Virus record (IMG/VR): IMGVR_UViG_2802429231_000004
Location: 1 to 11,151 of that record
Length of the DNA: 11,151 nucleotides
DNA from: a virus
Lineage: Duplodnaviria; Heunggongvirae; Uroviricota; Caudoviricetes
Strand: one strand, 5' to 3'
Positions 966-7,229 of this stretch are shown here, piece by piece (position 1 is the first letter of the stretch; each line of letters opens with the position of its first letter). Position numbers and translations under genes: made by a program. The notes below the pieces were generated by a model. That model worked only from the letters and a program-made list of their open reading frames with translations. It ran no database searches and was not told the DNA's origin.

Positions 966-990
966 AAAAAAAGCCCGAGTAGGTTCGGGC
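966..990 (-). terminator. Hairpin with upstream A-run; would terminate on the minus strand, forming a bidirectional pair with the 934-959 terminator
   Basis: AAAAAAA then GCCCGA-GTAGGT-TCGGGC; on the minus strand this reads as hairpin plus T7. Confidence 0.4.
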
Positions 991-1050
991 AACAGCATGA
1001 GATACTTGCATTGTCATTTTTATCGTGTGGATTTTAACCAGGGTTTATCA

Positions 1051-1172: not shown

Positions 1173-3026
1173 ATGACATTTAAACATTATGATGTTGTCA
1201 GGGCGGCGTCGCCGTCAGACCTTGCGGAAAAGCTGACACACAAACTGAAAGAGGGCTGGCAGCCGTTTGGTAGTCCGGTGGCCATAACCCCTTATACCCT
1301 GATGCAGGCGATTACAGCAGAAGGTGATGTGATGGTCAGTGGTGCAACTGAGCCGGATTGGTACTACGTCATCGTACTGGCCGGGCAGTCCAATGCCATG
1401 GCTTACGGTGAAGGGCTTCCGCTTCCGGATTCATACGATGCGCCCCATCCGCGCATTAAGCAACTGGCCCGTCGTAACACAGTGACTCCCGGTGGTGAAG
1501 TATGCGTATTTAACGACATCATTCCTGCTGACCATTGTCTGCATGATGTTCAGGATATGAGTACGATTAACCATCCCCGGGCTGACCTGAGCAAAGGGCA
1601 GTACGGCTGTGTCGGACAGGGCTTACATATTGCCAAAAAACTGCTTCCGTATATCCCTAATAATGCGGGGATCCTGCTGGTACCATGCTGTCGTGGTGGT
1701 TCGGCATTCACCCAGGGCACGGAGGGGACATTCAGCGAGTCCACGGGGGCCAGTCAGGATTCGGCTCGCTGGGGAGTGGGTAAGCCGTTATATCAGGATC
1801 TGCTTTTCCGCACGAAGGCAGCATTGCAGAAAAACCCGAAAAACGTTTTGCTGGCGATATGCTGGATGCAGGGGGAATTCGATATGACGAATGCCAGTTA
1901 CGCCCAGCAGCCAGCAGCATTTCTTGCAATGGTACAGCAGTTCCGTGCTGACCTTGCCGGGCTGGCGGCGCAGTGTCACGGTGGAAGTCCGGCATCAGTC
2001 CCCTGGATTTGTGGCGACACGACATACGCGTGGAAACAAGAACACGGTACGCAATATGAAGTGGTATATGGTGCATATAAAGGTAAAGAATCCCAGCAGA
2101 TTTATTTTGTTCCCTTTATGACCGATGGTAGCGGAGTTAATACACCGACAAACAACCCGTCAGAAGATCCTGATATTGTCGGGTCTGGTTATTACGGTTC
2201 GGCATCCCGAACGAACAAAAACTGGGTATCATCAAATCGCCCGACGCATTTCAGCTCATGGGCGCGTCGTGGCATTATTCCCGATCGTATGGCAACCGCT
2301 ATTCTGAACGCAGCCGGGCGCACCTCAGCCTTCATCAGTGGTAAGGCACCGGAAATCAAACCCTCGCCCGGCGGCGACACGCCATCGGGTCCGTCTACAG
2401 ATACGTCCGTTCGCACAATCTCCCTGCTGCCGACAGCCGGAGAGGCTGCTGCGCAGGGCTGGACCATTAAGGACGGCGGAATTCAGTTGTCGGGTGGTGT
2501 ATTTAAGATCGCCAAGCAGAGCAATAAAACCTGGTCCCTGACGCGCCCGGTGGATGACGCAGTCTCCCTGCTGACACGGGGTGGCAGACTGAGCTGTAAG
2601 TTTCGACTGTCAGGCGCACTGACCAACAATCAGTTCGGTCTGGGAATTTATCTGTATACCGATGTAGCGTTACCTGACGTCGTGGCGATGACGGGTACCG
2701 GTAACCCGTTCCTGATGTCGTTCTTCACCCAGACCACAGACGGCAAACTGAATCTGATGCATCACAAGAAAGCAGGAAACACAAAGTTGGGCGAGTTCGG
2801 GAATTACAGTAACGACTGGCAGACGCTGGAGCTGGTGTTCACCGCCGGCAGTGCCACGGTTACTCCGAAACTGAATGGAGTGGCTGGCCCGGCATTCCAG
2901 GTCATAAAAGACAGTCTGACACTGGGGCTGAATGCGCTGACGCTGACGGATATTACCAAAAATGCAGCGTATGGCGTTGAGATAGAAAGTCTGGTGCTGG
3001 AGATAAATGCACCGGCATCATCATAA
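1173..3026 (+). CDS. nanS: NanS-p-like prophage sialate 9-O-acetylesterase (N-terminal DUF1737, central SGNH/SASA esterase domain, C-terminal probable carbohydrate-binding region), 617 aa
   Basis: Long ORF with SD GGGAGG 5 nt upstream. N-terminus MTFKHYDVVRAASPSDLAEKL is DUF1737-like; GQSN esterase motif in VLAGQSNAMAYGEG. Sits in the same place as the large yjhS/nanS-p ORF downstream of stx in Stx2 phages. Confidence 0.85.
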   Translation: MTFKHYDVVRAASPSDLAEKLTHKLKEGWQPFGSPVAITPYTLMQAITAEGDVMVSGATEPDWYYVIVLAGQSNAMAYGEGLPLPDSYDAPHPRIKQLARRNTVTPGGEVCVFNDIIPADHCLHDVQDMSTINHPRADLSKGQYGCVGQGLHIAKKLLPYIPNNAGILLVPCCRGGSAFTQGTEGTFSESTGASQDSARWGVGKPLYQDLLFRTKAALQKNPKNVLLAICWMQGEFDMTNASYAQQPAAFLAMVQQFRADLAGLAAQCHGGSPASVPWICGDTTYAWKQEHGTQYEVVYGAYKGKESQQIYFVPFMTDGSGVNTPTNNPSEDPDIVGSGYYGSASRTNKNWVSSNRPTHFSSWARRGIIPDRMATAILNAAGRTSAFISGKAPEIKPSPGGDTPSGPSTDTSVRTISLLPTAGEAAAQGWTIKDGGIQLSGGVFKIAKQSNKTWSLTRPVDDAVSLLTRGGRLSCKFRLSGALTNNQFGLGIYLYTDVALPDVVAMTGTGNPFLMSFFTQTTDGKLNLMHHKKAGNTKLGEFGNYSNDWQTLELVFTAGSATVTPKLNGVAGPAFQVIKDSLTLGLNALTLTDITKNAAYGVEIESLVLEINAPASS

Positions 3027-3395: not shown

Positions 3396-3953
3396 ATGAA
3401 CCATGAAGAAATGAATCAGCGCTTCAGTCGCCTGGAAAATGAAATTGCTGAACTGAATAAAAAACTGTCGACGCTGATGCATTCTGAAGATGAAAAAAAA
3501 CGCCGCGATGAGCAGTTTGCTGCGTTTGACGATTATTGTCGGAAAGTGATGAGCAAAAATCTCGCAGAGTGTTTCAGTATTCATAATGATAATTTCAGTG
3601 AGCTGGAATGGGAGTGTAACCGGCCATCCTTTGTTGTATCCGGTGATGCCGGGAAAATAACCATCTCAGAAAATGGGAAAGTAACACCTCCATCGCACCA
3701 GCACAGTGAGGAGCTCATTGAATTTGCCATTGATTACCTGAAGAACAATAAAAAGCAGGGGCTGATGAAGCGCGTTGGCCGTTGCATGGGATATCTTCAG
3801 GTAGCCGCTGAGATTGAAGCGCTGGCCAGTGGTGCTGATAAGGATGCAATTGTGCGGGAGGCTCTTCTTCGTGATTTTAATACTCCACCCTTTAAAAAAG
3901 TGCCGGCTTACTGGCTTCATCCGGGGCTGACTTATCTTAAAGTGCGTATTTAG
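3396..3953 (+). CDS. Uncharacterised 185-aa soluble protein encoded between holin and endolysin (N-terminal predicted coiled coil, no TM segment)
   Basis: ATG 3396 lies 3 nt after the holin stop, with SD GGGGAGAG inside the holin 3' end (translational coupling). No motif I can assign. Looks lower in GC than the flanking lysis genes. Confidence 0.7.
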   Translation: MNHEEMNQRFSRLENEIAELNKKLSTLMHSEDEKKRRDEQFAAFDDYCRKVMSKNLAECFSIHNDNFSELEWECNRPSFVVSGDAGKITISENGKVTPPSHQHSEELIEFAIDYLKNNKKQGLMKRVGRCMGYLQVAAEIEALASGADKDAIVREALLRDFNTPPFKKVPAYWLHPGLTYLKVRI

Positions 3954-4821: not shown

Positions 4822-5286
4822 ATGAACCGCGTACTGTGCGTGGTCATCATTGCCCTGCTGGTGGCCTGTGGTGCGCTTAGTCTGGGGCTGAATCATTACC
4901 GTGATAACGCCATTACCTACAAAGCCCAGCGCGACAAAAATGTCAGAGAACTGAAGCTGGCGAACGCGGCAATTACTGACATGCAGATGCGTCAGCGTGA
5001 TGTTGCTGCGCTCGATGCAAAATACACGAAGGAGTTAGCTGATGCGAAAGCTGAAAATGATGCTCTGCGTGATGATGTTGCCGCTGGTCGTCGTCGGTTG
5101 CACATCAAAGCAGTCTGTCAGTCAGTGCGTGAAGCCACCACCGCCTCCGGCGTGGATAATGCAGCCTCCCCCCGACTGGCAGACACCGCTGAACGGGATT
5201 ATTTCACCCTCAGAGCGCGACTGATAATAATGCAAAAACAACTTGAAGGGGCACAGCTATACATTCGAGAGCAATGCCTCAGATAA
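4822..5286 (+). CDS. Rz: Rz i-spanin (inner-membrane spanin subunit), lambda type
   Basis: Near-identical to lambda Rz as remembered ([74 protein letters not shown]); N-terminal TMD. Confidence 0.95.
5042..5224 (+). CDS. Rz1: Rz1 o-spanin lipoprotein, embedded in the +1 frame of Rz
   Basis: [20 protein letters not shown] lipobox signal followed by proline-rich [15 protein letters not shown], matching lambda Rz1; fully nested in Rz. Confidence 0.9.
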
Positions 5287-5593
5287 AAACCGGCCAAGGA
5301 TAATCCGCTGAAGATTCGCCGGTGGCTAAAGTGTGCCAAGAGTTCAATTTACGCAATTACTCCTGTCGATGCTATGCACCGTCTTTGTGAAGTCAATGGA
5401 TACCTGATTTATTTCTGTGCGCTGTATCGTCGCTGTACTCTTGCATTAATTATGACTGTAGCCTGACGGGGAACTCCTTCTGCACAAGTGTGGGGGAATA
5501 ATCAAAAACGATGCACACCGGGGTTACCGGGTACACATATTTCATCATGCCAGCGAGTCCGGTTCTGGCACGGAAGAAACCGGACGTTATGAT

Positions 5594-6004
5594 TTAGTGC
5601 GGAAATATTTGTGTAGTGTTCTGAATGTTCTCAGTAAAGAGTAATGAATTATCAAAGGTATAGTAATACCTTTTGTTTTCGTGGATATTTGTAATCCATC
5701 TGAAAACCCCTGCTGTAGCAAGATTTTTCCTGTATTCGTAAAATGATAACTCTCCTGATTTGAATCCTTTTAAGGTGGCTTCTATAAGGCATTTATTTTT
5801 TGAAAATCTTACATTTACAACCTTACCCTGTCCTTTTATTAAAACCGTATTATCGTTTTCAAGAACAAGATGAATATTCTCTGTGGCTAAATAGTAAATG
5901 TAATGTGAGACATTGTGACGTTTTAGTTCAGAATAAAACCAGTGATAGTTTAAATTATTTCGCACTTTATCGAATATTTGTTTAAAAATGGCAACCTGAG
6001 CCAT
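5594..6004 (-). CDS. Hypothetical protein, possibly YbcV/YdfO-like (DUF1398) prophage family, 136 aa from the second Met; very AT-rich
   Basis: Minus-strand ORF; likely start is the ATG at 6004 with SD GAAGG 7 nt upstream (the track start at 6019 adds MEGTT). Size and C-terminal [18 protein letters not shown] resemble my recollection of DUF1398 proteins; a homologous region exists in the lambda right arm. Family assignment is from memory only. Confidence 0.6.
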
Positions 6005-6061
6005 TGTAGTACCTTCCATGTGATATGAGGGGGCGTAGTCTGCACGATTATCTAAATTGCT

Positions 6062-6295
6062 TCAATCTGGTCTGACCTGTTTTCTGAGCAATTCAGTAAT
6101 GTCACTCTTTTCTTTGTTTGCTTCAGGCGAAACTCTTTTTACTGAGCACAGTCTCCGGCGGCAGGCTTCAATGACCCAGGCTGAGAAATTCCCGGACCCT
6201 TTTTGAACAAGAGCGATGTTAATTTGTTCAATCATTTGGTTAGGAAAGCGGATGTTGCGGGTTGTTGTTCTGCGGGTTCTGTTCTTCGTTGACAT
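6062..6295 (-). CDS. Small ribbon-helix-helix (Arc/MetJ/CopG-like) DNA-binding protein, possibly YlcI/YnfO-like (DUF3950), 77 aa
   Basis: Basic N-terminus MSTKNRTRRTTTRNIRFPNQMIEQINIALVQKGSGNFSAWVIEACRRRL fits beta-strand/helix A/helix B of RHH regulators. Lies 42 nt upstream of, and co-oriented with, the 136-aa ORF. Confidence 0.65.
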   Translation of the reverse strand: MSTKNRTRRTTTRNIRFPNQMIEQINIALVQKGSGNFSAWVIEACRRRLCSVKRVSPEANKEKSDITELLRKQVRPD

Positions 6296-6494
6296 GAGGT
6301 TGCCCCGTATTCAGTGTCGCTGATTTGTATTGTCTGAAGTTGTTTTTACGTTAAGTTGATGCAGATCAATTAATACGATACCTGCGTCATAATTAATTAT
6401 TTGACGTGGTTTGATGGCGTAGATGCACGTTGTGACATGTAGATGATAATTATTATCATTTTGCGGGTCCTTTCCGGCGATCCGACAGGTTACG

Positions 6495-6506
6495 GGGCGG
6501 CGACCT
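6495..6506 (+). other. cos: cosN cohesive-end sequence (GGGCGGCGACCT) of a lambda-type cos site; cosQ-like sequence upstream and cosB downstream towards the small-terminase gene
   Basis: Exact lambda 12-nt cohesive end, preceded by GATCCGACAGGTTACG (lambda right-end sequence) and followed by CGCG..TTTTC.CTATTTATGA (lambda left-end-like). Confidence 0.85.
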
Positions 6507-6543
6507 CGCGCGTTTTCACTATTTATGAGATTTTTTGAGGGGG

Positions 6544-6555
6544 TGGTTGTTGTTT
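6544..6555 (+). repeat. cosB-region repeat TGGTTGTTGTTT (copy 1); candidate small-terminase binding element
   Basis: Exact 12-mer repeated at 6681-6692, with an inverted 9-mer ACAACAACC at 6604-6612, all between cosN and the small-terminase start. Confidence 0.4.
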
Positions 6556-6680
6556 AATTGTTTGGTATATCTAATTGATAAGTAAGGTGAAAATAAAATA
6601 AATACAACAACCTTACGATGTGTTTTGATGTCGTCAATGCAAAAAATGTCAATGATATCAAATGGTTTTGCAAAAACACA

Positions 6681-6692
6681 TGGTTGTTGTTT
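6681..6692 (+). repeat. cosB-region repeat TGGTTGTTGTTT (copy 2)
   Basis: Identical to the 6544-6555 12-mer; lies 31 nt upstream of the predicted small-terminase start. Confidence 0.4.
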
Positions 6693-6722
6693 CGCTTTTT
6701 ATCGATGACTTATGGAGAGGAG

Positions 6723-7229
6723 ATGGCCTTTTTATTGAATAAAAGTGATATGGCCTCCTCCATCGGTATCTCTGTTCAGGCATTTGATAAATGGGGCGTT
6801 CCTCCTGTTGAACGTCGGGGGAGGGAAGTTTTATATGACGTTAAAACTGTACTGGAGATAGATCGCGAGCGGCGACAACACAATCAGAGAACACCTGATG
6901 ACGGGGGAGAACTGGAGGAAAGGCTGCTTCGGGCCAGAGCTGAACTGACAGAAGAACAGGCTGTAGCTCAAAAACTTAAAAATCAGGTAACCGAAGGTAA
7001 GCTCATCGATTCAGACTTCTGCGTTTTCGCCCTCAGCAAACTGGCGATGGCATTGTCCAGTACGCTTGATTCCATTCCGTTATCCATGCAGCGACAGTTC
7101 CCGGATTTAACGCCACGTCATATTGACCATCTGAAAACCCTTATTGCAAAGGGGGCAAATCAGTGTGCGCGGGCAGGGGATAAATTACCGGATTTACTCG
7201 ATGAATATATCAGAGCAACAACTGAATAA
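6723..7229 (+). CDS. nu1: Terminase small subunit (Nu1 family), 168 aa
   Basis: C-terminal half aligns with lambda Nu1 as remembered (FCVFALSKLAMALSSTLDSIPLSMQRQFPDL..HIDHLK vs FCTFVLSRIAGEIASILDGLPLSVQRRFPEL..HVDFLK). Start chosen at ATG 6723 with SD GGAGAGGAG; the track ORF from 6618 is an extension across cosB. Overlaps the large-subunit start. Confidence 0.85.
   Translation: MAFLLNKSDMASSIGISVQAFDKWGVPPVERRGREVLYDVKTVLEIDRERRQHNQRTPDDGGELEERLLRARAELTEEQAVAQKLKNQVTEGKLIDSDFCVFALSKLAMALSSTLDSIPLSMQRQFPDLTPRHIDHLKTLIAKGANQCARAGDKLPDLLDEYIRATTE

Follow-up and report, generated by a model that had tools for sequence, protein, structure and literature searches.

A YlcI/YnfO-type ribbon-helix-helix gene and a DUF1398 gene between Rz and cos of a lambdoid prophage: probably two separate accessory units in the Qin ynfO-ydfO arrangement

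Two minus-strand genes are located between Rz/Rz1 and cosN of a lambdoid E. coli prophage, in a window (the whole stretch of DNA that was analysed) of 11,151 nt. The locus is a Qin-type ynfO-ydfO arrangement, which is ordinary, very widespread, and already known. The two genes are probably separate single-gene lambdoid accessory units that have become adjacent by chance. The first unit would encode a YlcI/YnfO protein of the ribbon-helix-helix (RHH) type with a strongly conserved core of 47-50 residues; its gene seems to be anchored at the lysis/packaging boundary, antisense to the late transcript, and the product may be expressed from the prophage as a dimeric DNA-binding regulator. The second unit would be an AT-rich 'moron' encoding a soluble DUF1398 protein. 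It presumably brings its own upstream control region, with a PdhR-type box as the first conserved element, and may be controlled by host regulators. Its product would be made in the lysogen and modify host physiology or stress tolerance; it appears not to serve phage growth.

The window represents the late region of a lambdoid E. coli prophage; over 5300-6620, its top match is E. coli O55:H7 DEC5D, at 99.5%. Three tRNAs and the sRNAs STnc100 and AgvB precede a NanS-p-type esterase; then follow a holin, an unknown 185-aa ORF, a lysozyme, Rz/Rz1 (4822-5286), and the two minus-strand ORFs, and thereafter cosQ, cosN, the Nu1-like and large terminase genes, gpW, and the portal. The prophage is apparently complete, with intact lysis and packaging genes. 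The cohesive-end site cosN (GGGCGGCGACCT, 6495-6506, plus strand) was read from the sequence, and the phage records ev099 and O276 end there. cosQ (GGGTCCT, 6465-6471) and a palindrome (ATGATAATAATTATCAT, 6443-6459) fall within the interval 6296-6494 between the RHH start and cosN, the expected place of the RHH promoter. On the Rz side, the variable cargo is bordered by a conserved segment of about 120 nt (5418-5536, blastn boundaries) that is common to lambda, ev099, and phage 2851; a 32-aa minus-strand ORF within it (5450-5548) is without a family match. Several observations of the first-pass annotation hold for this setting. Two minus-strand ORFs are indeed present between Rz and cosN (6062-6295, and 5594-6019 or 5594-6004), and the window harbors no other credible minus-strand protein genes, the strand being shared with the AgvB sRNA (966-1025). 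A bor ORF is absent: the gap between Rz and the pair comprises only 307 nt, and the homology to lambda, which amounts to 87% identity at this locus, starts at 5417, past bor.

Of 5426 complete E. coli genomes, 4284 (79%) contain DNA resembling the pair, in up to 13 places per genome; such DNA also occurs in 166 phage records, including lambda. The RHH core alone accounts for 9861 places in E. coli genomes. RefSeq already labels the products as 'YlcI/YnfO family protein' and 'DUF1398 domain-containing protein'. Both genes are members of the E. coli 'y-ome' and belong to its commonest prophage genes.

The YlcI/YnfO-family gene (6062-6295, minus strand) encodes 77 aa that match Pfam DUF3950 (2e-20; 72.8 bits, cut-off 25) and the NCBIfam model YlcI_YnfO_N (NF041551; 35.2 bits, cut-off 30). 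The DUF1398 gene (YbcV/YdfO family; 5594-6004, minus strand, 136 aa) reaches 147 bits against its Pfam profile (cut-off 22), covering positions 1-119 of 119, and aligns to E. coli YdfO, known from the NMR structure 2HH8, with an E-value of 1e-69. Given these Pfam, NCBIfam, and 2HH8 matches, the family identities that had been proposed for the two proteins are correct. The accompanying statement that both genes are markedly AT-rich applies to the DUF1398 gene (GC 0.314, window mean 0.507), but not to the RHH gene, which with a GC content of 0.449 is close to the Nu1-like ORF (6618-7229; 0.448) and little under the window. For the DUF1398 gene, the composition is that of laterally acquired cargo.

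As is usual for its family, the RHH protein is small (members have about 60-80 aa), resides in a lambdoid prophage, and has a gene adjoining the packaging genes, here 199 nt from cosN; the same packaging-adjacent position is occupied in lambda, ev099, 2851, and Lys8385Vzw. The protein consists of a basic N-terminal tail, a putative RHH-type core at residues ~14-50, and a variable C-terminal tail. Its motifs follow the order basic arm (MSTKNRTRRTTTRN), IRFP, helix, turn (KGSGN), and second helix. An AF2 monomer model displays an extended segment followed by helices at residues 19-32 and 34-53. In an hhalign comparison, residues 14-33 are placed in register on Arc 11-30, with NIRFPNQMIEQINIALVQKG opposite NLRWPREVLDLVRKVAEENG (local score 21.4, P 2.9e-4, probability 41%), and none of 200 column-shuffled controls attained this score (mean 8.0, maximum 16.7); the reference sequences used for it were confirmed with Pfam to belong to RHH families. 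PDB searches with the sequence and with a profile gave no match, and a Pfam search at E-values up to 10 gave no weak match to an RHH family. The best reading of motifs, model, and alignment is that the 77-aa protein is of the ribbon-helix-helix type and putatively DNA-binding. Relatives exist at greater distance: homologous ORFs from a Pasteurella element (unannotated, 29.8 bits in Pfam) and from a Clostridia MAG pass or approach the YlcI/YnfO family threshold. Distant RHH relatives retrieved in a scan of genome collections were mostly lambda control-DNA contamination.

The RHH gene is real and under purifying selection. From exactly its ATG (6295) to codon 47 (6155), it is homologous to phages 2851 and F349, and this conserved core (codons 1-47, 6155-6295, minus strand) is the sole part in common with the 2851-type Stx phages. 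Over these first 47 codons, dN/dS amounts to 0.04-0.07 against the copies of 2851, F349, and Lys8385Vzw (dS 0.74-1.47); in the other two frames of the same DNA, the ratios exceed 1. Among homologues, residues 1-50 are nearly invariant, and the C-terminal tails are hypervariable in length and sequence. The tail appears to be whatever the cargo junction encodes.

The DUF1398 gene, too, is real and under purifying selection, with dN/dS values of 0.23-0.34 against lambda, Tritos, and PhiR70_1. Two start codons have to be considered. ATG 6004 is preceded by a Shine-Dalgarno-like GAAGG (6012-6016, minus strand, 7 nt before the ATG) and is the position at which all homologues, close or remote, have their first residue; ATG 6019, which would give 141 aa (5594-6019), is without a Shine-Dalgarno sequence. 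The earlier description of 42 nt followed by a 136-aa protein combines two starts: 42 nt fits the 141-aa form, and the supported 136-aa start leaves 57 nt. The protein has the YdfO (2HH8) fold with a duplicated helix-helix-three-strand motif, lacks a signal peptide, and has in YdfO a homologue that was soluble in solution NMR (2HH8). PDB profile searches and weak Pfam matches returned its own family alone. Characteristics of morons are found in its presence/absence polymorphism, in its deviating GC content (0.314 vs 0.507), and in the dispensability of the lambda homologue lambdap78 (PMC10695390). Two database labels for this family appear to be wrong and to propagate. The label 'head protein' (PHROG 413) is rejected, since the gene lies on the strand opposite to the late operon and lambdap78 is non-essential; the label 'putative envelope protein' is unsupported, with a protein that has no signal peptide and a soluble homologue.

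The first-pass annotation had described a two-gene module in a compact operon, and this is not supported by the distribution of the genes. By tblastn, 153 phage records contain the RHH core and 43 contain DUF1398, and in more than 100 phage records the RHH gene occurs without DUF1398. This surplus consists largely of Stx1a-, Stx2c-, and Stx2a-converting phages. 2851, F349, and Lys8385Vzw have a solitary DUF3950 gene, which runs antisense to the late genes beside HNH-terS-terL; in phages of the 2851 type, the HNH endonuclease gene diverges from the RHH gene, its start being 41 nt away, and precedes terS-terL. Past the RHH gene of 2851, the sequence shows AT-rich DNA and a clear intrinsic terminator. 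Homology between 2851 and the window covers 6295-6155 and resumes at 5536-5418, i.e. the window's 5537-6154 is swapped for unrelated DNA between conserved flanks. Between these flanks, the RHH tail together with DUF1398 thus behaves like cargo that can be exchanged. The pair is split by an opposite-strand gene, ybcW/p79, on an insertion of ~560 bp in lambda, HK629, O276, and Tritos; the same applies to DLP12.

DUF1398 likewise occurs without its neighbor. Its distant homologues (25-45% identity) lie on chromosomes as monocistronic genes, away from any RHH gene, in Klebsiella pneumoniae, Pseudocitrobacter, and a JGI metagenome contig. A divergent 177-aa DUF1398 protein is encoded next to cos, without an RHH gene, in another E. 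coli prophage, and the lone paralogue ycgX is almost universal in E. coli. At a query cover of at least 80%, the RHH core is found in 4162 E. coli genomes and DUF1398 in 3011. The Qin-type adjacency was present in 79 of 83 fetched loci with an RHH match, a sample picked by its similarity to the query. Pairs nearly identical to that of the window adjoin terminases that are 64-66%, Nu1 proteins that are ~35%, and Rz proteins that are ~50% identical to those of the window; such near-identical pairs beside divergent neighbors are typical of lambdoid mosaicism. A conserved linkage of the antitoxin-toxin type was found in neither direction, and the pairing of RHH and DUF1398 is not obligate.

The sequences between the two genes point in the same direction. 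A PdhR-box-like palindrome, AACAGGTCAGACCAGAT (6065-6081, minus strand), overlaps the final five codons of the RHH gene, at a distance of 60 nt 5' of the DUF1398 ATG. This 17-mer is identical to the PdhR site that was reported from gSELEX for the ynfO-ydfO interval of Qin (PMC7660256). At loci of the lambda and DLP12 types, GGTCAGACCAGAT is kept at equal distance in otherwise unrelated upstream DNA, and the homology upstream of DUF1398 starts at this box and runs through a GATAAT and the Shine-Dalgarno sequence; in all arrangements, a GGTCAGACC box is situated 60 nt 5' of the DUF1398 ATG. GATAAT (6047-6052, minus strand), a -10-like hexamer with a poor -35 from a relaxed hexamer scan, is kept in all arrangement types and is a candidate DUF1398 promoter. 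According to genomic SELEX, PdhR binds the ynfO-ydfO and ybcV-ybcW boxes in vitro, and ybcV and ybcW mRNA is down ~10-fold in a pdhR mutant (PMC7660256). The site reported between ybcV and ybcW of DLP12 is the reverse complement of the Tritos sequence at the same place (PMC7660256). The box in the window is thus a putative host-regulation site, and DUF1398 would have its own promoter, probably an activator-dependent one.

An alternative reading makes the pair an operon of regulator and effector, in which repression by the RHH protein of a promoter located between cosQ and the RHH start would set the level of co-transcribed DUF1398 in lysogens. This is conceivable and rather unlikely. The genes share a strand, are separated by a 57-nt spacer, and a scan found no terminator between them; read-through co-transcription may take place in this arrangement, which recurs near-identically in many prophages. 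RHH proteins such as Arc, CopG, and ParD are generally autoregulated. On the other side, the upstream region offers neither a recognisable promoter nor a repeated operator: no consensus sigma-70 promoter was found on the minus strand in 6296-6520, and relaxed scans returned there only -10-like hexamers with poor -35 elements. An alignment of 52 distinct upstream regions was near-invariant from cosN to the RHH ATG and too similar for footprinting. Further, in the 2851 type the upstream DNA is replaced by the HNH gene 41 nt away and the RHH core is still strongly selected, and DUF1398 retains its upstream box when split from the RHH gene in lambda, DLP12, and Tritos. Counted against two separate units were the lack of an identifiable RHH promoter, the lack of an intergenic terminator, and the common Qin-type adjacency. 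Downstream of DUF1398, a hairpin (CCGGTTTCTTCCGTGCCAGAACCGG, 5559-5583, minus strand) begins 10 nt past the stop codon and has no T-run; the terminator scan after the gene called none, this hairpin included, and RNA fold z-scores were unremarkable.

The position of the RHH gene suggests a further alternative, in which its product is related to packaging or protects cos, for instance by binding nearby or by stopping read-through into the terminase genes in lysogens, and DUF1398 is unrelated cargo. The RHH gene is always the last before the packaging module and antisense to the late transcript, and this holds across unrelated terminase systems (lambda-type Nu1/A as well as HNH-terS-terL). Members of the family are also listed in capsid-forming PICIs (PMC13612085). 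ybcW and ylcI of MG1655 form a convergent excludon, i.e. overlapping convergent transcripts, in RNA-seq (PMC12288877); from this listing, ylcI therefore appears to be transcribed in K-12. All of this support is purely positional. The CRISPRi mapping of lambda left the RHH ORF untargeted (PMC10695390), and the homologous ORF of Pasteurella Pmp7 lies ~2.8 kb from the terminase gene, so that a packaging-related role is regarded as improbable. Similarly doubtful, in our view, is a more specific version, according to which the YlcI/YnfO protein would be a lysogen-made guard of the lysis/packaging boundary or, alternatively, act on the cos of superinfecting relatives. If true, DNA binding and/or convergent transcription would keep stray late transcription off the terminase genes and prevent the terminase product from cutting the prophage's own cos. 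Such a role would explain the selection on the RHH core beside unrelated packaging modules and in capsid-forming PICIs.

Published hints on function mainly concern the DUF1398 side. lambdap78 is non-essential (PMC10695390). ydfO is stress-inducible, with a 12- to 116-fold increase upon exposure to ionic liquid (PMC4077768), and its overexpression raises resistance to oxidative stress according to earlier work as cited in that paper. ybcV was up-regulated in a sabinene-tolerant strain, and its overexpression from the ASKA library yielded viable cells with changed glycogen content (PMC2853380). Upon expression of T4 MotB in BL21(DE3), ybcV and ybcW rose more than 1000-fold, a figure that reads from lambda DE3 may confound. 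The published phenotypes are scattered and stem from K-12 paralogues, not from the window locus.

That the pair might be a type II toxin-antitoxin or abortive-infection system, in which the RHH protein would be the antitoxin and DUF1398 the toxin, was suggested by its layout, where a larger partner follows a small RHH gene, and by the variable, antitoxin-like C-terminal tail of the RHH protein. The linkage, unconserved in both directions, speaks against it. DUF1398 matched no toxin family in Pfam. The sole match in a PADLOC scan was that of DUF1398 to Csx23 (E 0.025), with none for RHH, i.e. neither protein has a significant match to a defence system. Moreover, YdfO was produced for the NMR structure 2HH8, YbcV/YdfO overexpressors are viable, and the lone paralogue ycgX persists in almost all E. 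coli. A toxin-antitoxin function is thus very unlikely, and the pair should not count as a toxin-antitoxin or defence candidate. The view that the ORFs are untranslated relics conserved by hitch-hiking with cos, to which the near-invariance of the DNA from cosN to the RHH start among lambda-like phages and the weak RHH Shine-Dalgarno sequence in the window might be ascribed, is rejected as virtually untenable, since it is contradicted by the substitution pattern of both genes (including the off-frame ratios of the RHH core), by the strong Shine-Dalgarno sequence of the 2851-type copy, and by intact ORFs across thousands of genomes.

With two separate units as the preferred reading, the genes are best studied separately, one encoding a constrained small protein of the DNA-binding type, the other a DUF1398 cargo apparently regulated by a PdhR box. 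What seems worth pursuing is that the 47-residue RHH core is so strongly constrained and, at the same time, keeps a fixed place ahead of packaging modules that are unrelated to one another.

Compared with known systems, the RHH protein resembles Arc, Mnt, and CopG in its basic N-terminal arm, the IRFP strand motif, a predicted helix, a G-x-S/N turn, and a second predicted helix; at the sequence level, however, neither the RHH families of Pfam nor the chains of the PDB gave a match. DUF1398 resembles the lambda morons bor and lom in being non-essential (lambdap78), in its strand opposite to the late genes, in its deviant composition, and in its variable occurrence between conserved flanks of the Rz-cos interval; unlike these, it is neither a lipoprotein nor an outer-membrane protein. 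The Stx phages 2851, 1717, and F349 (Pankowvirus) carry stand-alone DUF3950 genes with an RHH core of 84-86% aa identity; like the gene of the window, these run antisense to the late genes, directly before the packaging module. They differ in the lack of DUF1398, the HNH gene 41 nt upstream, another tail, and an intrinsic terminator of their own. The right end of lambda and DLP12 (YlcI-like ORF, lambdap79, lambdap78; ylcI/ybcW/ybcV) agrees with the window in its orientation towards cos; the first 54 residues of the RHH protein have 94% aa identity and DUF1398 has 76%, with the same box 60 nt upstream of DUF1398. Lambda and DLP12 differ in the ~560-bp ybcW/p79 insertion, another RHH tail, and bor downstream, all of which are absent in the window. 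The window also resembles ynfO-ydfO of Qin in K-12, with the same families, order, and strand, the same place by the nohQ/cos remnant, and a reported PdhR 17-mer that is identical in the window. The window copy differs from Qin in residing in an apparently complete prophage and in encoding a different allele of the DUF1398 protein.

The RHH gene (DUF3950; 6062-6295, minus strand) carries at its end a PdhR-box-like 17-mer, AACAGGTCAGACCAGAT (6065-6081, minus strand), that overlaps the last five codons and is the same sequence as the published PdhR gSELEX site in the ynfO/ydfO interval of the E. coli K-12 prophage Qin. Loci of the lambda and DLP12 types retain its core, GGTCAGACCAGAT, 60 nt ahead of the DUF1398 start; the DNA upstream of the core in these loci is otherwise unrelated to the window. 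Ahead of the DUF1398 gene (5594-6004, minus strand), a C-run (approximately 6028-6036, minus strand) is located between a -10-like GATAAT and the Shine-Dalgarno sequence of this gene; it is a possible slippage tract in the 5' leader. Among loci that are otherwise near-identical (the window and the related loci L002-L083), the length of this run ranges from 4 to 7 C.

DUF1398 proteins are denoted as "head protein" (PHROG 413) in NC_001416, NC_049951, NC_049953, and other RefSeq phage records, and an earlier label in such records was "putative envelope protein". Both labels look like propagated errors: the gene runs antisense to the late genes, the lambda representative lambdap78 is non-essential (PMC10695390), and a solution NMR structure (2HH8) exists for YdfO, a member of the family.

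An unannotated 59-aa DUF3950 ORF of Pasteurella phage Pmp7 (OR544138; L096:3501-3680) scores above the Pfam threshold (29.8 bits) and is situated antisense within an annotated 224-aa "transcriptional repressor", for which the Pfam search gave no match. In a different E. coli prophage, which has a large terminase with 97.6% identity to that of the window, the same Rz-cos slot is occupied by a divergent 177-aa DUF1398 protein (25% identity; L087:5001-5534); this slot lacks an RHH gene, and approximately 970 nt of uncalled DNA separate the DUF1398 gene from Nu1. Most matches to this DNA in assemblies of Streptomyces, Pedobacter, Cohnella, Pseudomonas, and others (genome contigs L107-L141 and many ENA contigs of approximately 3.5 kb) are 3.5-kb or 48.5-kb contigs or small fragments that show the same protein-level identity to the query as lambda (approximately 93%); they most likely represent contamination of the assemblies with lambda control DNA.

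Upstream of the lysis genes, three tRNA and two sRNA genes, STnc100 (757-965) and the anti-GcvB sRNA AgvB (966-1025, minus strand), are clustered at 396-1025 ahead of a NanS-p-type esterase gene (1173-3026), with no stx genes in between. A 185-aa ORF (3396-3953), inserted between the holin and lysozyme genes, matches PHROG 1085, labeled "unknown function", and gave no match in Pfam, NCBIfam, or PADLOC.

The variable cargo is bordered on its Rz side by a conserved segment of approximately 120 nt (5418-5536), shared in this same position with lambda (from 46867), phage record ev099, and the Stx phage 2851. It harbors a 32-aa minus-strand ORF (5450-5548) without a match in the family search; in some phage records a small ORF is annotated at the equivalent position. 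On the cos side, an AT-rich palindrome, ATGATAATAATTATCAT (6443-6459), lies directly left of cosQ (6465-6471); it is kept in all related loci with one or two changes, and the best minus-strand -10-like hexamers fall inside it. The cosN-cosQ-RHH side is near-identical across phages whose Nu1 proteins share only approximately 35% identity (loci L004-L083), and right of cosN, on the Nu1 side (6507-6620), the window diverges completely from the lambda-type cosB.
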